64,000 nucleotides of DNA from an uncultured Acidobacteriota bacterium (GCA_963700065.1 CAVOWJ010000014.1:35692-99691), one strand, 5' to 3'; numbered from the stretch's first letter, positions 47,663-62,288 are shown. Program-made: numbers and translations. Notes: generated from the letters alone by a model not told the origin.

Positions 47663-50600
47663 CTAGAAGATCTGCCCGATCGAGAAGTGGAAGCGGTAGC
47701 TGCGATCTTCCGGCCGGCGGTCGAGGGGATAGCCGACGTCGATCCGGATCGGCGCGAAGGGCGTCATGACGCGGATGCCGAATCCGGTCCCCACGGCGAG
47801 CTCGTCGAGCCTGATGGACGTGCCCGGCCTGAACGTGTTGCCGGCGTCGATGAAAACGGCGCCCTGCAGCCACTTGGAGAACAGCCGGAACCGCACCTCC
47901 TGGTTCAGCAGCAGCAGTTTGCTGCCGCCGACGGGCACGCCGAAGACCTCGAAGGCCGACAGGGAGTCCTCGGCGTAGCCGCGGACCGTCGTCGACCCGC
48001 CCGCGTCGAAGAAGCGGTCGAAGATCGTAATCGGCGGAAGGCCGGTGTAGTCGCCGAGCCCGTGCAGCCAGCCCCAGCGGACGCCGCTCGCGAAGATCAG
48101 CGGCCCGGCCGGCTTGTAGTAGAACTGGCGAAGCAGGATTCGGAAGTAGTTGAGATCCGAGCCGAGCGGCTCCAGGCCCCACTGGAAGTTGGAGGACTGG
48201 AACCAGCCGCGCGACGCGTCGAACGGCTTGTCGCGGGCGTCCAGGACGAACGTGCCGTTCAGCGAGGCGAGTACGCCCTTCAGTTCCGCTGACACCGTGC
48301 CCTCCGGGGCCAGAAACTCCACGTCACGCAGGTTGTAGCTGTAGCCCCACGACACTTCCATGCGACGTGGCAGGCGGAAGCGCTGCTCGAACGTGATGTC
48401 GCGCTCCTTGTCCGTGTAGCTGATGTCTTGCTCGGACGTGTCCGTCTCGGACCGGATCGTCGCGAACAGGCTGGTCTGCAGCCGCTGGCTGAGCAGGGGC
48501 GGCAACGAGAACTGGCCGCGCAGGCTCTGGAGGTTCTTCTCGAGCCGGCCGCTGGCGCCGAGACCGAAGGCGCGGCCCAGGAAATTGCGGTCGCGAACAT
48601 CGGCGGCCACTCCGACGGCCGACGTGAAGTCCTCGAAGATCGGGCCGTACTCGTTCGACAACTGGACGCCGTAGCGGAGTTGATAGCGGCGCGCCTCCTC
48701 CAGCGAGACCTTCACGTTGACCGGCACGGCGCCTTCGACCGTGGGCGCTGCCGCCGGTGCGGGCTCGAAGCTCACGTCGGCCCTGCGGAAGACGCCGAGG
48801 CCGTAGAGCTGCTTCTGGGTGTCGGCCGCGTCCTGTTGACCGGCCGGATCACCGGGCTTCAGCGTCACGGCGCCAGCGGCGAAGGCCTGTTTGGTCGCCT
48901 GCAGGCCCTCGAACATGAGGCCGGTCACCACCGACATCGGGCCCTCGGTCACCGCGAATCCCATCGTGACACGGCCCTCGGCGTCGAGGCTCCGCGTGGT
49001 CGCGACCTTCGCCGATCGGAACCCTCGATCGAGGTAGAAGCGTTCGAGCCGCCGCCGGGCATCGAGCTCGGTCGACGGCTCGACGGACGTGCCCGGCGCG
49101 ATGCCCAGCGAGGCACGCACGGCCCCGTCGCGCTCCTGAGCGATGCCGGTCAGGATAATCTCTCCCAGGACGGCCGCAGGCGCTTCGCGGACGCGGATGC
49201 GCAGCGCCGCCGTGCCGCCCTCGAACGCGATCGGGTCGGCGGCGACTCGCGTCCCTGAACGGCCGCGCTCCTCGTAAAGGGCCTTCACCGCATCGACCAG
49301 CGGCGCCGGGTCCACCCACGCCGCCGCCAGGTCGACGCGGTCTTCCAGCGCCGCTCGAAGCTCCGCCTCGCCGAGAGCCTGCACGCCTTCGAACGTCAGT
49401 TCGCGGGTTCTGGTCTCGGGCCCGCCGTCCACGGTCACGCTCGCGCGGTACACGTCCGGGTCGGTCGCGTCGACCGACACCGTCATGGTCGGACGCAGAT
49501 GCCCTCGCGAGGCCAGCAGGCCGCGCACCTCCCGCGTCAAGTCGTCTTTCACGAACTCGGGGAGCACCGACGCGCTCCAGGCTCTCATCAGCGACTCGCG
49601 CTCGTCGTCGTCGAGGTCGATGCCCTCGACCGCCAACGACGTTCTGGGGCCGCGATCGATGCGATACGTCAGCGCCACCAGTTCCCGGTCCGCGTCACGC
49701 CCGAAGGTCCTGCTCTGGGCAATGCGGGCGACGGCATGTCCGCGGTCCCGATAGAACCCCTCGAGCCGCTCCCGATCCGCCTGCCACCGGCCGGCGTCGA
49801 ACTCGTCCGACCGCTTGAGCTTGGTCACGGACGCCAGCTCAGAGGCCGGGAAACCGAGTTCTCCGGTGAAGCTCACGTCGGACACGCGGGGCCCCTTGAC
49901 CCGCTTCCTCAGACCGGCGCTGCTCGGCGGAGACACGCCCGGGCCAAACGCGATCTCCTGGCGGAACTCGATCACCTCCTCCACGTTGTCGCGCTGGGAG
50001 AGCCGGACCTCGTATCCGCGCCTGGGCGAGAGAATGGCGATCCAGGTCAGCTTGTTGTTCTCCAGGTCCTGCGACAACACGAGACTGGTCCGGGCGTTGA
50101 GGCGTTTCGAAACGGTCAGCCGCATCGCGGGGCTGACGTCGCTCGAGCCGAGTTCGAAGTCGCCCCTGCCAAGCTGGACCGAATCGAGCCCGACCATCTG
50201 GCCCGCTATGCCCAACAAATCCGAGGAAGCCGTGCCGAGCACGAACTCCTCGTCGGCGTTGCTCTTCGTCGCCGAGGCGTCCGTCGTGCGGCCGGTGACG
50301 AGCAGCGACTGAACATCACGCTGGCTGAGCGGCGGGTCGGAGGTGTAAGTCGCCTCCATGTCCGTCACCGGTCCCTGCGTGCGGAGCGTCACCTGGTAGT
50401 CGCCGACCCGGGTTTCCCCAATCAACTGCACGGCCGGATCGCCGGCACCCGGAAACACCACCCGGCCTTCGCTCAAGCGGAAGGTGCGCCCCATCAAGGT
50501 CAGGCGCCCCTCGTCGACCATGTTCAGGCTGCCGAAGATGAGGGGTTCCGCGAGCGTCCCCTTGAGCGTCATGCTCGGCACCAAGTCAAGGTGTCCGGCG

Positions 50601-53600
50601 CTGTTGTCGATGATGATGGGCGACGATGCGGTGAGTTCGACGTCCAGCGCAACGCCATCCAGCGCGGACGATCCGCCGGCGGGTGCCGCTGCCGGCGTCC
50701 GTGGCGACGAGAAGAGGCGAGCCATGGCGGTGATCGGTTCGCGATAGGCGCCGGATGTGACGGTGACCTTGCCCGACAGCCTGGCGCCGTCGTCAGCCGA
50801 GGTCAGCGTCAGCTCCGCGTCGGCCTGGCTGCGGAGTCCCTTGACGACTTCCACGAACGCGTCGCGGACGCGCATCGTCAGCCCCGCGCCGCCCTGGCCG
50901 CCCAACTGGACCGAACCGGAGACGCTGGCGTCGCCGCCGTTGACCTGGCCCTCGAGACGCTCGATGGTGAGGGCCTTCGCCGAGAGCGTCGCCTCGCCGG
51001 ACCAGTCCCTGAGCGCGAGGCGTTGCTCCTGCCATACCCACGCCGCGTCTTCGAGCGACAGATTGCCGCGCACGACCGGATCGGCAACCGGGCCGGAGGC
51101 CTTGAACGAGCCCTTGAACGCGCCCGCCAGACGGCCCGGGATGAGTGACGACAGAAACCCCAGCGCCCCCGAGGCCGAGACGTCTGCATCGACAACCCGC
51201 TCGCCCGTCAGACCGAGGCTGCCCGAGACCGACGCCGTGGTGCCCGGGGCGGTGATCGCGACATCGTCGACCGTGGCCCGCCCGTTCTCGATGCGCACCT
51301 CGGCTGCGCGGGGCAACGTGAAGGGGACATCCCTGACCGTCACCGTGTCGGGCTCCAGGACCATGCGCCCGTCGATGGCGCCGATCGATGGAGCCGACGC
51401 AGTGCCGGACACGGACAGCCGCAGCGAGCCCGTCATCGTTCCCGGTTCGTCCGGCCTGAGCCACGCGCCCAGCGTCTTCACGTCAGGCTCGGCACGCAGG
51501 TCGAACGACGCGGGCTTCGGAGCCGCCGGCGTCTCATCCACACGCCAGCCCTCTGGCAGATAGTCTTCGACCCAGTTCAGGGGAAGGTCGCCGGATGCCG
51601 ACAGGGGCCCGCCGAACCCGCGGCCGGTCAGGCGCGAGAGCCACAGCCGGCCATCGCGGATATCGGCCGTCGCATCGAGGGCTTCGACAAACGACGTTCC
51701 GCCGCTGTTGATCCCGGCGCCCGACAGTGACGCGTGCCCGGCAAGGAGGACCCTGCGGCGATCGAAGTCTCCGGACGCTTCCACTGTCGCCGAGATCGAG
51801 CCGCCGCCCAGCGCATCCAGGTCCTGCGCGCCAACGAGCGTCCGGAACCGATCGGTGGCCAGATCGGCAATCGACAGCGTGGCGGTGAATGCGTGGGGCG
51901 CCTGCACCAACGCGTGGCCCGTCACTGATGCCGCCCAGTCGGGCAGCTTCGCGGCAAGTTCGATCCGGCCCGACGCGAGCGAGAGCTGTGCCTCTGCAGG
52001 CACTGGCGTCAGGGACGCCGCGCGCACGGCGGCCGCGGTGATACGGACGGTCGCCTCCGGGTTCGACAGCGGCCCGTCGACCCGGCCTTCCACGGTTCCG
52101 CGCTCGAGGCGGAACGCCTCGTTTTCCAGGGAGACGTCGGTCGCGCCGGCCGTCACCGAGACGACGGGATCGGCAACCGGCCCCTTCCAGTCGCCGGCGA
52201 TGGCGAACGACCCGCCGGCCGTCAGCGCCTCATCGGCCGGCGTGCCGGTGGCCGCACCGAGGACCGTCTTCAGCACCTGGCCGGGATTCTCAATCCTCGC
52301 CGTGAAGGCTCCCGTCGTCACGGCCGAGTCAAAGTCGAACGAGGCGCTGCCTTCGACGCGATTGCCCATCCCGTTGTCGCCGGTCAGCTTCGCGACTTCC
52401 AGGCGCGAAGGCGTGGCCACGAAGTCCGCTGAGGCAGCGAGAGGCGGCAGAGCGAGCAATCGCAGCGCCCCGGACGCCGCCGCACCGCTGAAACGCGGTT
52501 CGCCGAGCGTGCCGTCGACGGTGCCGTCGAGTGTCAGCGGGGCGTCGGCAATCCACGCGGCCGCGTCGGGCAGGTCAGGAAACGCCAGCCGCGCCTCCGT
52601 CAGGGCCTCCTGCGCGTGCGCGCTGGAGACATGGAGCGTGCCGGCCACCGGCGAAGCGCTGATGGCGGCGGGGTTGACGGTGATGGTCGCCTCGAGATCC
52701 GCCGCGGTGCCGCCGGCGAGCTCCTGCCGGCCGCGCACCGACCACCGACCTGGAGCCGCATCCACGGTGACTCGCGCCGGCGGCAAGTCCGGCGCCAGCC
52801 AGAGCTCGGATGTCACCTCGCCCGCCACCGTCTCGAAGCCCAGCGCCATGCCCGGCCAATGCACCTGCGCGGATCCTGTGGCGACCACGCCAATCGGATC
52901 GGCCGGCAGGAGCGGAAAGACCCGACGGAGGCCGGCGATCGAGACGCTAGCCCACTTCAGCGAGAACCGGCTGTTCGCATCGGCCGGGCCAAGCGGGAGC
53001 CTGCCGGACGCCTCGACCCAGCCCTTGCCGACGCCGGTCCGCAGCCGATCGACGTAGATCCCCGTCCGTGAAATGCGGCCCTCGGCGGCCGAGGCTGGCA
53101 GCCGGATGTCAGGCAGACTGACGCCTGCCGACCGCACGGAGTACGTGAACTGCGGGTCGTTCAACGGCCCGGTCACGCGCCCGTCGAGCTGAAGCGCGCC
53201 GCTGCCCGCCGGCAGCGCGGGGAACCACGGTCCGACGTTCGAGACATCGAACGCTCCCGAGATCCCAAGATCGAATTGGGGCGACGGGCCGGTGAACACG
53301 ACTGAACCGTCGAGAGCCAGGCGAGCGGTCCCGACGACGGCAGACCTCGGCTCCGCGCCGATGGCATCGCCGTCGAGCGTCGCCCGGCCTTCGAGGCGAT
53401 CGACGCGCACGCGCGCGTCGTCGCTATCGAGCGAAAGCCCACCGGCCACTCGGAACTGACCGGCCAGGCGCCTCGGCCCGTTACCCCGGACCTCGAGTGT
53501 GACATCGCGCGCGCGGAGGTGGCCGATTCCGTCCTGATCGATGAACTCGAGATCCGCGTGCCGCACCACCGCCTGGCTGACGGTGAATGCCGGCACTTTG

Positions 53601-53992
53601 AAAGGCGCGGGTGATCGAGCCGGCTCGCCGCCGCGCGGTTCGAGGGCGATGACGAGCGCCACGCCGTCCGCGTCGAGGCGGTCCACCTCGACGACGCCCG
53701 TCAGCACGCGGGGTGACAGCGCGGCTTCCACGTGGCGCACACGAAGGAGTGGTGCGCCCGTCGATCCGCGCCGGCTGATCTGCAGGCCCTCGACCGTGGC
53801 GGTCAGGCGGAAGAGGTTGTAGTCGAGCGCGGACGCGGAATAGTCGAACGACGAGCCCTCGCTCAACCGGGTGGTGACCTCGCGCAGCACCCTCCCGCGC
53901 GCCCACGACGAATGAAGCACGGCCGCGAGCACCGCCAGACCGGCGCCCAGCACCAGCAGACGGAGGGCCCACCGGATCGCGGCTCGCTTCAC
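47663..53992 (-). CDS. TamB/AsmA-like (DUF490) - POTRA - Omp85 (TamA/BamA-like) fusion protein, 2109 aa
   Basis: N-terminal TM anchor; long beta-strand-rich AsmA-like region; DUF490-like TSDPPLSQRDVQSLLVTG; about 5 POTRA-like repeats; barrel motifs DARDKPFDASRG, GGSTTVRGY, GFGIR...PIRIDVG and FHFSIGQIF. Confidence 0.88.
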   Translation of the reverse strand: MKRAAIRWALRLLVLGAGLAVLAAVLHSSWARGRVLREVTTRLSEGSSFDYSASALDYNLFRLTATVEGLQISRRGSTGAPLLRVRHVEAALSPRVLTGVVEVDRLDADGVALVIALEPRGGEPARSPAPFKVPAFTVSQAVVRHADLEFIDQDGIGHLRARDVTLEVRGNGPRRLAGQFRVAGGLSLDSDDARVRVDRLEGRATLDGDAIGAEPRSAVVGTARLALDGSVVFTGPSPQFDLGISGAFDVSNVGPWFPALPAGSGALQLDGRVTGPLNDPQFTYSVRSAGVSLPDIRLPASAAEGRISRTGIYVDRLRTGVGKGWVEASGRLPLGPADANSRFSLKWASVSIAGLRRVFPLLPADPIGVVATGSAQVHWPGMALGFETVAGEVTSELWLAPDLPPARVTVDAAPGRWSVRGRQELAGGTAADLEATITVNPAAISASPVAGTLHVSSAHAQEALTEARLAFPDLPDAAAWIADAPLTLDGTVDGTLGEPRFSGAAASGALRLLALPPLAASADFVATPSRLEVAKLTGDNGMGNRVEGSASFDFDSAVTTGAFTARIENPGQVLKTVLGAATGTPADEALTAGGSFAIAGDWKGPVADPVVSVTAGATDVSLENEAFRLERGTVEGRVDGPLSNPEATVRITAAAVRAASLTPVPAEAQLSLASGRIELAAKLPDWAASVTGHALVQAPHAFTATLSIADLATDRFRTLVGAQDLDALGGGSISATVEASGDFDRRRVLLAGHASLSGAGINSGGTSFVEALDATADIRDGRLWLSRLTGRGFGGPLSASGDLPLNWVEDYLPEGWRVDETPAAPKPASFDLRAEPDVKTLGAWLRPDEPGTMTGSLRLSVSGTASAPSIGAIDGRMVLEPDTVTVRDVPFTLPRAAEVRIENGRATVDDVAITAPGTTASVSGSLGLTGERVVDADVSASGALGFLSSLIPGRLAGAFKGSFKASGPVADPVVRGNLSLEDAAWVWQEQRLALRDWSGEATLSAKALTIERLEGQVNGGDASVSGSVQLGGQGGAGLTMRVRDAFVEVVKGLRSQADAELTLTSADDGARLSGKVTVTSGAYREPITAMARLFSSPRTPAAAPAGGSSALDGVALDVELTASSPIIIDNSAGHLDLVPSMTLKGTLAEPLIFGSLNMVDEGRLTLMGRTFRLSEGRVVFPGAGDPAVQLIGETRVGDYQVTLRTQGPVTDMEATYTSDPPLSQRDVQSLLVTGRTTDASATKSNADEEFVLGTASSDLLGIAGQMVGLDSVQLGRGDFELGSSDVSPAMRLTVSKRLNARTSLVLSQDLENNKLTWIAILSPRRGYEVRLSQRDNVEEVIEFRQEIAFGPGVSPPSSAGLRKRVKGPRVSDVSFTGELGFPASELASVTKLKRSDEFDAGRWQADRERLEGFYRDRGHAVARIAQSRTFGRDADRELVALTYRIDRGPRTSLAVEGIDLDDDERESLMRAWSASVLPEFVKDDLTREVRGLLASRGHLRPTMTVSVDATDPDVYRASVTVDGGPETRTRELTFEGVQALGEAELRAALEDRVDLAAAWVDPAPLVDAVKALYEERGRSGTRVAADPIAFEGGTAALRIRVREAPAAVLGEIILTGIAQERDGAVRASLGIAPGTSVEPSTELDARRRLERFYLDRGFRSAKVATTRSLDAEGRVTMGFAVTEGPMSVVTGLMFEGLQATKQAFAAGAVTLKPGDPAGQQDAADTQKQLYGLGVFRRADVSFEPAPAAAPTVEGAVPVNVKVSLEEARRYQLRYGVQLSNEYGPIFEDFTSAVGVAADVRDRNFLGRAFGLGASGRLEKNLQSLRGQFSLPPLLSQRLQTSLFATIRSETDTSEQDISYTDKERDITFEQRFRLPRRMEVSWGYSYNLRDVEFLAPEGTVSAELKGVLASLNGTFVLDARDKPFDASRGWFQSSNFQWGLEPLGSDLNYFRILLRQFYYKPAGPLIFASGVRWGWLHGLGDYTGLPPITIFDRFFDAGGSTTVRGYAEDSLSAFEVFGVPVGGSKLLLLNQEVRFRLFSKWLQGAVFIDAGNTFRPGTSIRLDELAVGTGFGIRVMTPFAPIRIDVGYPLDRRPEDRSYRFHFSIGQIF

Positions 53993-53994
53993 AT

Positions 53995-54738
53995 CTACTT
54001 CTTCAATTGCGCAGCCACGGCCTCGGCGGCCTTCTTCACCGCTTCGGGATCCCCGAGGTAGTAGTTCTTGATCGGCTTCAGGTCGTCGGTCAGCTCATAC
54101 ACCAGCGGGATGCCCGTCGGGATGTTCAGGCCGACGATGTCCGCGTCTGGGATGTTGTCGAGGTACTTCACGAGCGCGCGCAGGCTGTTGCCGTGCGCGG
54201 TGATGAGCACGCGCTGCCCGGAGCGTACCGCCGGCGCGACGGTTTCGTGCCAGAACGGCAGAAAGCGGGCGACGGTGTCTTTCAGGCACTCGGTCAGCGG
54301 CAGGTCGGCCGGGGCAAGGCCGGCGTACCGCGGGTCGCGGCTCGGGTGCCGCGGGTCGTCCGGCGTCAGGGCGGGCGGCGGAATGTCGTAGCTCCGGCGC
54401 CAGAGGTTGGTCTGCTCCATGCCGTGTTTCGCCGCCGTCTCGGCCTTGTTGAGGCCCTGCAGCGCCCCGTAGTGCCGCTCGTTGAGGCGCCAGGTGTTGT
54501 GCACCGGAATCCACATCTGGTCCAGCTGTTCGAGCGCAATCCAGAGCGTCTTGATGGCTCGCTTCAGCACCGACGTATAGGCCACGTCAAACACGTACCC
54601 TTCATCGCGCAGCGCCCGGCCTCCTGCGATGGCCTCCTCGACGCCCTTCTCACTCAGATCCACGTCGGTCCAGCCGGTGAACCGGTTCTCCTTGTTCCAG
54701 GTGCTTTCTCCGTGACGAACGAGAACGAGTTTCTTCAT
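53995..54738 (-). CDS. gpmA: 2,3-bisphosphoglycerate-dependent phosphoglycerate mutase
   Basis: Motifs [21 protein letters not shown] and AHGNSLR. Confidence 0.97.
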
Positions 54739-54773
54739 GACGCGTCCAGACCCCCTGCTTTATGATCGCCGAA

Positions 54774-54834
54774 AAAAGGGGACAGGCCCCTTATTCGTTC
54801 CGCTGCTCCAAGAAAAAGGGGCCTGTCCCCTTTT
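54774..54834. repeat. Perfect 19-bp inverted repeat with internally palindromic arms (REP-like, possibly a terminator)
   Basis: AAAAGGGGACAGGCCCCTT-N23-AAGGGGCCTGTCCCCTTTT. Confidence 0.75.
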
Positions 54835-54835
54835 C

Positions 54836-55924
54836 TCACCCTTCCGCCGGCTCGTCGCGGTCGGCCGAATCGCCCGGCACCGCCGCGGCTTCCGGGGCCC
54901 CTGCCGGGTCCACGTCCTGCCGAGCCACCAGCCGATCGGCCACCCAGCCGAGGGCGGCCTCGTCGCCCCGCGCCAGCAGCGCCTCGAGCGGCGACCGCGC
55001 GAAGGCCGACGACTCGCGCGTCTGCATGCCGGGCCACGAGCCGTCGGCGCGGCGCGGCGCGTAACGGCACCAGAACCCCAGGTGCCACACGAGGAACTCG
55101 CGCAGGCGCGTCAGCCCGTGCTCGTCCTCGCCCCAGTGTTCGCGGGCGAGCTCGACATAGCGCCGGTAGATGGCGAGCCGCTCGTCCGCGCGGATGTCCC
55201 AGTAGCCGTCCAGCGCTTCCTTGAAGAGCCACGGCTTGATGAGCGCGCCGCGCCCGGCCATGACAGCCACACATCCCGACCTGGCTCTCGCCTCCGCGAT
55301 CTCGTGCGGAAACAGGATGTCGCCGTTGCCCACCACGGGCACCGGCACGGCGGCCGCCACTTCCCCGATCGCATCCCAGTCGGCGGACTGGCGGTACCGG
55401 GCGTCCCGCGTCCGGCCGTGCACGATGACGGCGTCGGCCCCTCCCTCCACGGCGGCCCGGGCCTGCTCCAGGTAGTTCCGATCGCCGTCGTTCCACCCCA
55501 GGCGGATCTTCGCCGTGACCGGCACCGCCGCGACCGCGCGCTTCATGGCTTCCACGATGCGCCGGATGCGCTTGGGCTGGCGGCCCAGGGCCGCGCCCAT
55601 CCCCTTGCGGGTGAAATGATCGATGGGGCAGCCGAAGTTGACGTCCACCAGGTCCGCCCCGCGTGACTCGACCAGGGCCGCCGCCCACCCCATCTCCTCC
55701 GGGTCGGTGCCCGCCAGCTGCACGCCGAAGAACGGCTCGTCGGGGGCGCGCCTGATCAGGGCGAACTCGCCCCGGCGCTTCTGCTTGAGGCGGCGGGCCA
55801 CCGTCATCTCGCTCATGAGCACCCGCGCGCCAAGCTCGGCGCACAGGCGCCGGTACGGCAGGTTGCCGCCCCTGGTCATCGGGGCCAGCACCACCGTCCC
55901 CTCGAGCCGCTGCCGGAGGTCCAT
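54836..55924 (-). CDS. tRNA-dihydrouridine synthase family protein
   Basis: Motifs LAPMT, DVNFGCP, KIRLG, VHGRT and GNGDI. Confidence 0.9.
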   Translation of the reverse strand: MDLRQRLEGTVVLAPMTRGGNLPYRRLCAELGARVLMSEMTVARRLKQKRRGEFALIRRAPDEPFFGVQLAGTDPEEMGWAAALVESRGADLVDVNFGCPIDHFTRKGMGAALGRQPKRIRRIVEAMKRAVAAVPVTAKIRLGWNDGDRNYLEQARAAVEGGADAVIVHGRTRDARYRQSADWDAIGEVAAAVPVPVVGNGDILFPHEIAEARARSGCVAVMAGRGALIKPWLFKEALDGYWDIRADERLAIYRRYVELAREHWGEDEHGLTRLREFLVWHLGFWCRYAPRRADGSWPGMQTRESSAFARSPLEALLARGDEAALGWVADRLVARQDVDPAGAPEAAAVPGDSADRDEPAEG

Positions 55925-56038
55925 CCTCTAATCGTAGCCGTATTTGAACTCCCTGACCGGAGCCGTCGTCCAATGGGTAGAATGGTCACTCCGGGGCAGC
56001 CCCGGGGTATGCCTTCTCGCGAAAGGACTCCTCCTGCC

Positions 56039-59898: not shown

Positions 59899-61161
59899 TC
59901 AGAACTTGAAGCCGGCCATCACGTGCACCCGTGTGCCGCTGTCGAAGCCGTAGGCGACATCGACCTCGAACTGGAAGAGCGGGACCCGCAGGTACCATCC
60001 GCCGCCGGCGCCGTACTCGAAGCGCGCGTCGGCCAGCGCCACGCCGTGCGCGTACGCGGCGCCCAGGTCGCCGAAGATCTTCAGCCCCGTCTGGCCGAGG
60101 CGCAGGGGTGAATGGAACGGCACGCGAAGCTCGACCGAGGCGTTGGCCGCATTGTCGCCGGTGAACGCGCCGGCCCTGAATCCGCGCAGCGAGCCGAAGC
60201 CGCCCACCAGCGCGCGTTCGTACACCGGCAACGGCCCGTCGGCCGTCTCGGTGCGCGCCCGCAGGGCCAGCACGCTCGAGCCGATGAGCCCCAGGTACGC
60301 CTGGCCGTCGAGGGTGTACCGGTTCACGGTGGGCCCGGAGTCCGGCGACAGCCCCTCCCAGGCGGCGCTGGCGAAGACCGCGTTGCGCGGGAACGACGGG
60401 TTGACGCGGGTGTCCAGCGAAAGGCTGGCGCCGCCGGTGACCAGTTGATCGTGCACGTCGCCGAAGGACACGTCGGCCCAGCCGGCCCGGGTGCTCGCGT
60501 TCAGCACGCGCGCGAACCGGCGGGATCCCTCCACCCAGAACTGGTTGCGCAGATCGCGGATGTCATAGCCGGGGTTCTCGCGGCTGATGATGCGGTATCC
60601 GCCGTGCAGGCGGCCTCCCGACGCGGTGCCGAACGTCTTGTCGAGCTCGATGCCGGCCTGCCGCGTCGAGCCGACGCTGAGGGGCGCGATGATGTGCCCG
60701 CCCTTGCCGAGCACGTTGACGAAGCTGAGGCGGCCGCCCGCGATGATCCCGTAGCCGTCGACGTATTCCAACGATGGCGACGCCATCAACGCGTTGCGGA
60801 CCCGCTTCAGGGGGCCGGGCATCTCGCCGCCCTTCTCGACGCCGGGGCGCTCGGTGACGGCGATAATGACCGAAACCTGCGACGCGTCGTCGAGCGAGCG
60901 GTAGCGCTTGCGGACGTCGACCGCGTCGAACCGGCCGCTTTGCCGCAGGCGGCCGGCGGCCGCGTCGATCGCGCCGGCTTCGAGAGGACTGCCGACCGCG
61001 ATCCCGGCGAGCTTCAGCACCTCGTCGTCGGGCGTGCGGTAGTTGCCGTGGATGCGGACCTCGGCGACCACCTCGGGCCCCGCGGTCTGCGCCAGGGCGG
61101 GGGCGCAGCCGGCGGCCAGCAGCAGCACGGCCACGAGCAGGCGAGCCATCGGGCGCGGCAT
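59899..61161 (-). CDS. Omp85-family protein with a single POTRA domain
   Basis: Signal peptide; POTRA VAEVRIHGNYRT...LRQSGRF; barrel motifs LDTR and GGFGSLRGF; C-terminal AGFKF. Confidence 0.8.
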   Translation of the reverse strand: MPRPMARLLVAVLLLAAGCAPALAQTAGPEVVAEVRIHGNYRTPDDEVLKLAGIAVGSPLEAGAIDAAAGRLRQSGRFDAVDVRKRYRSLDDASQVSVIIAVTERPGVEKGGEMPGPLKRVRNALMASPSLEYVDGYGIIAGGRLSFVNVLGKGGHIIAPLSVGSTRQAGIELDKTFGTASGGRLHGGYRIISRENPGYDIRDLRNQFWVEGSRRFARVLNASTRAGWADVSFGDVHDQLVTGGASLSLDTRVNPSFPRNAVFASAAWEGLSPDSGPTVNRYTLDGQAYLGLIGSSVLALRARTETADGPLPVYERALVGGFGSLRGFRAGAFTGDNAANASVELRVPFHSPLRLGQTGLKIFGDLGAAYAHGVALADARFEYGAGGGWYLRVPLFQFEVDVAYGFDSGTRVHVMAGFKF

Positions 61162-61165
61162 CGGG

Positions 61166-62288
61166 TTACGGCTCCTTGGGCACGTAGCCGCGGATCTTCG
61201 CGCTGACCTCGCCCTTGCGATAGTCGAAGAACTCACGCACGTACCGGAAGCTGTAGGAACCAGCCGCGAAGGTCGCGCCGAAGTCGAACGAGATCTCCCT
61301 GGGGAGCCAGACGTTGTCGAAGTACCGGCCCATGGCCATGGCCGCCTTCGCCTGGTCCACCCGGACAATGGCGCGGCCGGGCAGGAAGCCCCAGTCGGCG
61401 TTGTCGAAGGCGAACCTGACGATCTGGAACTCCTGCGGATTCGATCCACATCGTCACCATCGTCACCTTGTTGAGCGCCGCCTCGATCTCGTCCTCGAGA
61501 TCGTCACCCTTGTCGCGCTTCGCCGGCTTCTTTCGCGCGTCCTTGGCGGCCGGTGGCTCTCCGGCCGACTGGACCTTGACGTCGCCTCCGGCGGTGATGG
61601 TGACCTCCTTCTTCTCGCGCTCCTTGTCTTCGGTGAAGAGACGGGTGGGGTAGTACTCGACCTTGACGACCGGGCGGCCGTCGATGGCCTCGCGCCCGGC
61701 CAGGTAGTAGTTGCCCGGCTCGAACGGGAATTTCATGAAGTACGCCTCGGAGATGAACCGCGGCTCGGTGCCCGCCAGCGCGACAACCTCCTTGTCGGTG
61801 CCGATGTCGAGGGATTGGAGTTCCTCGACCACCTCCGCCTCCACGGAATCCGCGCCCGGTTTCGCGGCATCGTCCTTCCTGGCCGCCTTCTCCTTCGCCC
61901 GCCGCTCCCGGTCCTGTTCCTTCTTCAGCCAGTCGGCCTCGTACTTCCGGCGATCCGCCTCGCCGAGCGAGGCGCCGTTCGCCTTGACGGGGCTCCGCAC
62001 CAGGTAGCCGTCGCGGATGAACCACTGGTACTCGCGGCGCTGGCCGGCCAGGGGCATGCCGCCCGGGCCCAGGATCTGAAACGTTTCGCGCTCGCTCAGG
62101 ATGTAGTCGTGCAGCGTCTTCCAGTTCTCGTTCCGCCGCTCGAGGACGCGCGACATGAACGCATCGAGATCCGTGAGCGCTGCCCCCGGCTTCGCCGGGT
62201 TCTGCGGCGCCGCGCCCGCGGCCTGCACGAGCCAGCCGGCCGCCGCCAGGGCCAGGACTGCGGGGACTGTCCGTCGATGCACGAGCAC
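61166..62288 (-). CDS. Secreted protein with a suspected LolA/RseB-like fold; apparent frameshift near 61435
   Basis: Signal peptide; [21 protein letters not shown]...QIVR, VWLPREI and FFDYRK. Confidence 0.6.

Follow-up and report, generated by a model that had tools for sequence, protein, structure and literature searches.

A window of 64,000 nucleotides from an uncultured Acidobacteriota bacterium (GCA_963700065.1, CAVOWJ010000014.1:35692-99691; positions without a contig name are counted from the first letter of this window) was analysed around one long gene on the minus strand, 47663..53992, in which an N-terminal membrane anchor, a TamB-like bridge, five POTRA domains and an Omp85 β-barrel are encoded as a single protein. 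Translation of 47663..53992 gave a single open frame of 2109 codons plus stop without any internal stop codon, with the stop codon at 47663-47665 and a GTG start at 53992-53990, in agreement with homologues whose start lies at the same place. The G+C content around the gene is 67–72%, the encoded protein contains zero cysteines, and the host is a soil or sediment acidobacterium. An earlier annotation of this DNA, made from the sequence alone (the sequence-only reading), had described one uninterrupted 2109-amino-acid open reading frame with an N-terminal transmembrane anchor, a TamB-like bridge ending in a DUF490 region, a short linker, no signal-peptide-like segment at the junction, about five POTRA-like domains and a complete Omp85 barrel. 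This layout was recovered in full by the hydropathy, profile and structure analyses given below, with DUF490, POTRA and Omp85 all found above their Pfam cut-offs.

The N-terminal signal-anchor helix, a hallmark of the TamB/DUF490 family, was assigned to residues about 8-27 (53912..53971, minus) from hydropathy and structure prediction. When the whole protein was scanned in 19-residue windows, a Kyte–Doolittle mean of at least 1.6 was reached only in windows starting at residues 4-13. Two AlphaFold2 models were calculated, one of residues 1-1100 and one of residues 1001-2109, each from a 32-row alignment. The first (mean predicted local distance difference test score, pLDDT, 85.5) contains helices at 2-26 and 29-45 followed by near-continuous β-strands from 49 to 1080; in both models together, the strands run near-continuously from 49 to 1220 and form the long periplasmic taco body typical of TamB proteins. 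The AsmA/TamB-like, β-rich bridge with its chorein-like N-terminus was delimited to residues 28-1011 (50960..53911, minus) from the model and from structural matches. Using VIA-align, the N-terminal half was matched to E. coli TamB (9xdc_B, Z 9.4, root-mean-square deviation (rmsd) 3.8 over 156 residues; 5vtg_B, Z 7.4), LPD-3 (9cap_A, Z 9.0) and the N-termini of Vps13 (6cbc_B, Z 8.1) and Atg2 (6a9e_B, Z 7.5); all of these matches are local and of middling Z-score, and each lies in the expected place. Foldseek returned for this half matches of low template modelling (TM) score alone (ApoB100, LPD-3, LptD), and a weak Pfam match to DUF748 (residues 6-168, 27.9 bits) stayed under its cut-off of 50.

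The bridge is concluded by a TamB/DUF490 domain at residues 1012-1349 (49946..50959, minus). PF04357 was matched at residues 1012-1336 with 96 bits versus a cut-off of 22.4, covering profile positions 2-369 of 381. In the model of residues 1001-2109, the domain shows two helices (1224-1233 and 1258-1266) and six terminal strands at 1271-1349; the C-terminal domain of E. coli TamB is likewise built from two helices and six terminal strands (PMC12800296, section 10; statements on published work, here and below, refer to the parts of each source that were covered). The last TamB strand, EFRQEIAF (residues 1342-1349; 49946..49969, minus), was identified in a junction alignment of 32 homologues with 27-79% identity, in which F1343 is present in 24 sequences, R1344 in 29, F1349 in 25 and G1350 in 31, the conserved pattern being EFR[QH][ED][LIV]xFG, followed by a variable linker and then by POTRA1. 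Hydrophobic and charged residues alternate along this strand and its final residue is phenylalanine; it fits the pattern of the β-signal-like strand through which TamB pairs with TamA β1 in E. coli (PMC12800296, section 9). In the TamB family this strand is expected at the end of the protein, whereas here it is internal, with the linker and 742 further residues beyond it.

The linker itself, GPGVSPPSSAGLRKRVKG, comprises residues 1350-1367 (49892..49945, minus), as defined by the junction alignments, the model and contigs from other sequencing runs, and coincides with the stretch of about 49890-49945 first proposed for it. It is 18 amino acids long here and 9-23 residues long across the 32 homologues, variable in sequence and rich in P, R, A and S, with a pLDDT of about 55 in the model; directly after it, POTRA1 opens with a conserved P-R-V in the 32 homologues. 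By hydropathy, no signal-peptide-like or membrane segment was detected at the junction (maximum mean 0.49 for windows starting at residues 1300-1420), and a second export signal is absent there. A variable linker of low model confidence that also contains basic residues (RKRVK here), preceded by a last TamB strand that ends in F-G like a free β-signal, would suit a processed precursor, in which a single chain ensures equal export of a signal-less Omp85 half and a periplasmic protease then cuts the linker to release a two-subunit translocation and assembly module (TAM). However, a conserved cleavage motif is missing from the junction alignment, where conservation is confined to G1350 and the domains on either side; the retention of a 9-23 amino acid linker across the phylum fits a tether equally well, and the lineage is able to export an Omp85 protein with its own signal peptide, namely the separate paralogue described below. 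Processing at the linker is therefore held to be unlikely, and an uncut tether between the two halves is preferred.

Beyond this tether, five POTRA domains were located at residues 1368-1767 (48692..49891, minus) from the model, the match to BamA and PF07244 (76.4 bits, best stretch 1368-1448). In the model of residues 1001-2109 (mean pLDDT 77.3, predicted TM score (pTM) 0.53), β-α-α-β-β units were observed at 1369-1446, 1450-1522, 1529-1602, 1608-1682 and 1686-1767. The Omp85 β-barrel was assigned to residues 1768-2109 (47666..48691, minus) with the C-terminal β-signal ...FSIGQIF; it is matched by PF01103 at residues 1803-2109 (144 bits versus a cut-off of 24) and by structural comparison, and spans 1770-2105 in the model. 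The part is built as in the Omp85 superfamily, with a 16-strand barrel preceded by POTRA domains. With Foldseek, residues 1368-2107 were aligned to full-length E. coli BamA (8pzu_A, E 6.7e-40), including all five POTRA domains and the barrel. VIA-align matched E. coli BamA 9mge_A with Z 24.2 over 690 aligned residues (model residues 368..1107), and TamA 8us1 with Z 23.4 over residues 1528-2109 (rmsd 5.6 over 525 residues); the best PDB sequence match of the barrel was TamA as well (8us1_A, 1.7e-17). The NCBIfam equivalogs gave scores far under their cut-offs for BamA (TIGR03303, 193.8 bits versus 297.15), TamA (NF047950, 80.4 bits versus 625, the fused protein also having five POTRA domains instead of three and no own signal peptide at this half) and TamB (NF047952, 18.5 bits versus 825), and the protein is therefore regarded as a superfamily member and not as an orthologue of the named proteobacterial proteins. 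Within the POTRA region, at window positions 49409-49412, one contig from another study (X3) lacks one base and gains another three bases away, a combination that preserves the frame.

The junction was then compared among related genomes. A single-frame, stop-free match through the junction was obtained in 19 of 31 relatives, and in one more (G006, a 61%-complete genome) the fused gene is present and split over several frames. For a survey of the phylum, a junction-centred query of 451 residues was run against a sample of 401 of its genomes, with a threshold of E <= 1e-12. Matches were found in 96 of the 401 genomes; by hand count, 88 rows in 82 genomes span the junction in one frame, a number that takes in G000 and the unpublished G178 and becomes 81 of 400 without the latter, while 14 genomes match the TamB end alone or the POTRA domains alone. 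Two junction-spanning copies occur in six of the surveyed genomes (G290, G381, G070, G146, G069 and G084). PF04357, PF07244 and PF01103 were found together in 91 of 110 database homologues, mostly of 2000-2470 amino acids; those that bear a name in their source are called 'translocation/assembly module TamB domain-containing protein' at NCBI (from Vicinamibacterales, Vicinamibacteria or Acidobacteria bacteria) and BamA or BamA/TamB at JGI. Judged from the closest named homologue, which has 65% identity, the organism would belong in or near the Vicinamibacterales, a placement made from names and not from a classification. A profile-free scan of 1.84 billion representatives yielded 2551 matches at E <= 1e-3 and 322 at E <= 1e-30, and most of the best 150 representatives cover the junction in one stretch. 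At 50% identity the family falls into hundreds of clusters, and about one in five of the Acidobacteriota genomes sampled carries it. When genome contigs were searched for related loci, a single chance match of 36 residues, in an actinomycete, was returned.

These results bear directly on an artefact, in which two adjacent genes would have been joined by a sequencing or assembly indel. Such an event is conceivable in so far as a bamA gene on another contig (C8) of the same assembly is frameshifted, and as the separate tamB and bamA2 genes of this genome overlap in an ATGA, so that a single indel could join genes of this kind. It is opposed by the junction being free of a signal peptide, by the identical single frame in many independent genomes and metagenomes, and by the fused halves forming paralogue clades separate from the operon genes. 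Contigs from two other studies also span the linker with 0 gaps (X2 record 18, 49863-50201; X3 record 27, 49811-50063), no indel being listed near the linker in these other-run contigs. Among the sequencing runs compared, X17 may be RNA, and the other RNA runs contained 0.05-0.06 of the sequence words. The 2109-amino-acid TamB-Omp85 frame was confirmed as real and far beyond chance or an assembly slip, because it is intact both here and in many independent genomes. The view of the sequence-only reading that the fusion was not made by an indel thus withstood the comparison across the phylum, the search for homologues of the same architecture and the inspection of independent contigs at the junction, and an artefact is next to impossible.

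Three large Omp85 genes are present in the genome, namely canonical bamA (C8), a BamA-like gene (C7) and the fused gene. At C7:584650-591677, a separate tamB (1366 amino acids, end ...VRVRYVFK) is followed by the BamA-like gene (BamA2, 973 amino acids), which has its own signal peptide, the tamB stop and the bamA2 start sharing a 4-base ATGA overlap. The fused protein is 26% identical to the separate TamB over residues 831-1334 and 27% identical to BamA2 residues 189-973; as the latter alignment starts at BamA2 residue 189, the fused half lacks the signal peptide and about two N-terminal POTRA domains of BamA2. No blastp match of the fused protein to canonical C8 BamA was obtained at E <= 1e-3. 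In an unrooted tree of 20 barrels from 6 genomes of one order, each class lies on one side of a branch: canonical BamA with 8 barrels (98/93), BamA2 with 6 (99/97) and the fused barrels with 6 (100/99), and the fused and the TamB-linked BamA2 barrels group apart from canonical BamA (98/93). An unrooted tree of 20 DUF490 domains from 10 genomes, likewise of one order, placed the fused domains (8 rows, 99/99) adjoining the operon TamBs (10 rows, 96/96), with a third class of 2 rows far off. By sequence comparison, both halves of the fused gene are paralogous to the tamB-bamA2 operon, and the trees would fit a history in which a tamB-bamA2 pair was duplicated and a single fusion then took place ahead of the diversification of the order. 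TamB was detected in 61 of 61 sampled genomes of the order, and all 18 fusion-bearing genomes in that sample also hold a separate, higher-scoring TamB. The fused protein is not the cell's only TAM; as judged from these gene inventories, the fusion is an extra module and no replacement for the separate TamB.

The two rows of the third class represent a separate, very divergent TamB of some genomes of the order, which scores highly in Pfam and sits on a long branch (G021:C73:43001-44131, L052; G025:C13:35302-36552, L056). Open frames of 2360-2558 amino acids surround the operon-type TamBs in G024, G428, G436 and G445; the long frame in G024 was considered as a further fusion and dropped, because its Omp85 lies in a different frame.

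Taken together, we consider it likely that the locus carries an old, conserved single-polypeptide gene for a self-contained TAM-like bridge, which would serve chiefly in lipid transport and whose TamB part would dock into its own barrel. The N-terminal helix would remain in the inner membrane as a Sec signal-anchor that is not cleaved off; the roughly 2080 residues after it would be exported, and the TamB-like β-groove would cross the periplasm like that of TamB. The barrel, last out of the Sec channel and equipped with its own β-signal FSIGQIF, would be folded into the outer membrane by the canonical β-barrel assembly machinery (BAM) while still tethered, its insertion presumably being carried out by canonical C8 BamA. 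The end strands of DUF490 would then dock at the β1 side of the barrel in the style of the E. coli hybrid barrel, here intramolecularly, and the resulting single chain, fixed in both membranes, would move phospholipid outward to the outer membrane. That such a chain would be tethered at both ends, as the sequence-only reading had proposed, follows from the anatomy. The fusion would enforce 1:1 pairing and keep the module apart from the cell's second, two-protein TAM; since every fusion-bearing genome checked has such a second TAM, the covalent joint may keep cognate partners together.

In E. coli, TamA β1 pairs with the last TamB strand (PMC12800296), and a stable hybrid barrel formed by TamA and TamB has been proposed as the functional state (PMC12800296; bioRxiv 10.64898/2026.03.22.713439). 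A tether located right after the pairing strand would hold this strand at the gate, which fits a stable hybrid barrel as the working state of the TAM and speaks against the insertion of other proteins as the chief function. Two weak hints of docking were obtained. In VIA-align, 2 of 50 rows cover the TamB end strands (model residues from 302/303) together with the barrel. An exploratory scan for mutual information, run on 167 sequences (about 119 effective, relatedness uncorrected), placed 42 of the 100 highest-ranking barrel partners of residues 1290-1349 in the β1-β2 hairpin 1768-1804, which makes up 11% of the barrel positions, and six control regions gave 10-25 of 100 in the same hairpin. 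As a tentative extension, the association could be that of a permanent one-chain hybrid barrel, spanning both membranes with an α-helical anchor in one and a β-barrel in the other, in which POTRA1 would be forced back to the lateral gate by the short linker of 9-23 residues and the POTRA domains would loop round the end of the groove; with the gate always occupied by the protein's own strand, the whole machine would then be a dedicated lipid conduit without protein insertion. If true, this would be a rare case of a BAM-assembled barrel tethered to the inner membrane.

Several observations weigh against a conserved, self-docking TAM-like bridge. The covariation controls are generally biased to the β1-β2 hairpin, the scan rests on about 119 effective sequences with uncorrected relatedness, and the pTM of the 1001-2109 model is 0.53. 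Where the linker is as short as 9 amino acids, as in some homologues, five POTRA domains may be difficult to accommodate unless POTRA1 lies near the barrel. A junction-spanning match was missing from the other 11 of the 31 relatives, including G004, which is 100% complete in 2 contigs; with such a patchy distribution, the fused protein is dispensable. In one relative (P0029, 63% identical over 1369 residues), the frame is lost exactly after EFRQEI and a stop follows 40 residues on, and several others, such as P0016, P0041 and P0047, are truncated, a few relatives ending within the POTRA region; errors of sequencing, pseudogenes or genuinely split genes may lie behind these cases. Canonical bamA of the same assembly (C8:538462-541306) is broken by one frameshift near C8:539733, where tblastn with the BamA of a relative passes from frame -1 to frame -2. 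The cause is probably an assembly indel; the frames of this assembly are therefore not beyond doubt, though the fused frame is intact.

The gene neighbourhood was compared with that of relatives. Neighbours are kept within the genus (G002) and partly in G017, and none are kept in 8 more distant loci; no conserved partner gene beside the fusion emerged among the loci compared. Directly upstream, the stop of a histidine-phosphatase-family gene (53995-54738, minus) abuts the GTG start of the fused gene (window 53990-53997), which suggests that the two are co-transcribed in this genus, the arrangement being absent from more distant relatives. Further upstream, the minus strand encodes a conserved 412-amino-acid protein without a Pfam family (54735-55973) and a small Omp85 protein of 516 amino acids (59899-61449) with one POTRA domain, a barrel and a weak ShlB match. 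In G017 (L038), the small Omp85 and the 412-amino-acid protein are both encoded directly upstream of the fused gene, and a functional link of these two proteins to the fusion is possible from this gene order.

The recurrence of these two genes, here and in G017, would also agree with a tethered insertase, in which the BamA-like barrel with its five POTRA domains would be dedicated to assembling particular outer-membrane proteins, with the TamB part acting as a slide or spacer in the periplasm. The five POTRA domains and the full BamA-like fold would be suited to that task, and autotransporters, Ag43 for example, are also inserted by the TAM of E. coli (PMC12800296, section 19). On the other hand, a covalently attached β-signal strand would compete with substrates at β1, the 8 more distant loci have no substrate gene conserved next to the fusion, and the N-terminal half matches the folds of lipid-transfer proteins. 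An insertase of this kind was accordingly judged to be quite improbable, and a bridge chiefly for lipid transport is preferred.

To our knowledge, every bacterium studied makes TamB and its Omp85 partner as two distinct proteins. The fusion resembles TamA plus TamB of E. coli in its inner-membrane-anchored TamB part, its β-taco groove, the β-signal-like last strand of DUF490 and the Omp85 barrel, and differs in being one polypeptide, in having five POTRA domains rather than three and in an Omp85 half without signal peptide. The Acidobacteriota tamB-bamA2 operon, the nearest paralogue of both halves, shares the gene order tamB then Omp85, but its genes are separate (ATGA overlap) and its BamA2 has a signal peptide and about two extra POTRA domains. 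A duplicated, TamA-like BamA of Acidobacteriota was described by Heinz et al. 2015 (PMC4494059); in a word look-up within the covered parts of that article, neither 'fusion' nor 'fused' occurs. As in the BamA-TamB pairs of Borrelia and Deinococcus, the partner of TamB is a BamA-type Omp85 with five POTRA domains and not TamA (PMC5582053, PMC11361582, PMC5382914), although the proteins are separate in those bacteria and BamA is the only one in the cell. PlpD and the WD40-like Omp85 proteins (Heinz and Lithgow 2014, PMC4104836) likewise have a functional module fused N-terminally to an Omp85 barrel, but these modules are soluble or secreted behind a signal peptide, and none is a periplasm-spanning partner anchored in the inner membrane; the ten Omp85 subfamilies of that article include no TamB fusion in the parts covered. 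With VPS13, ATG2 and LPD-3/BLTP1, the protein shares a chorein-like N-terminus and a long β-groove (local structural matches, Z 7.5-9.0), a likeness that is distant, structural only and of middling Z, and none of those proteins carries a β-barrel partner within its own chain. Neither full-text literature searches nor word look-ups in the covered parts of PMC4494059, PMC4104836 and PMC4827864 yielded an account of a TamB-Omp85 fusion occurring in nature, with subscription journals and supplements outside the scope of this search. The fusion would work like a TAM and is a member of both the TamB and the Omp85 superfamily; its novelty relative to the described TAM and BamA-TamB pairs is the single chain.

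The sequence-only reading had called the fusion a 'Rosetta stone' for TAM function. This holds to a limited extent, because a structure of the hybrid barrel of E. coli TamA and TamB is already available (PDB 9xdc/9xdd; PMC12800296; bioRxiv 10.64898/2026.03.22.713439); the part that stands is the bearing of the fusion on the permanence of the association. Two structural studies from 2026 (PMC12800296; bioRxiv 10.64898/2026.03.22.713439) debate whether the hybrid barrel is the lasting, working form or a transient one, and a covalent tie through a short linker right after the pairing strand fits a permanent association. The fused protein provides studies of structure and transport with a single-chain construct that already exists in nature, and it is of interest to the field of outer-membrane biogenesis, the source databases labelling the family only as 'TamB domain-containing protein' or 'BamA'. 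For the organism it poses a puzzle of biogenesis, since the barrel would have to be folded by BAM while an anchor 1340 residues upstream still holds its chain in the inner membrane, and for the family it illustrates a way in which two TAM-like systems in one cell might be kept from mixing their partners.

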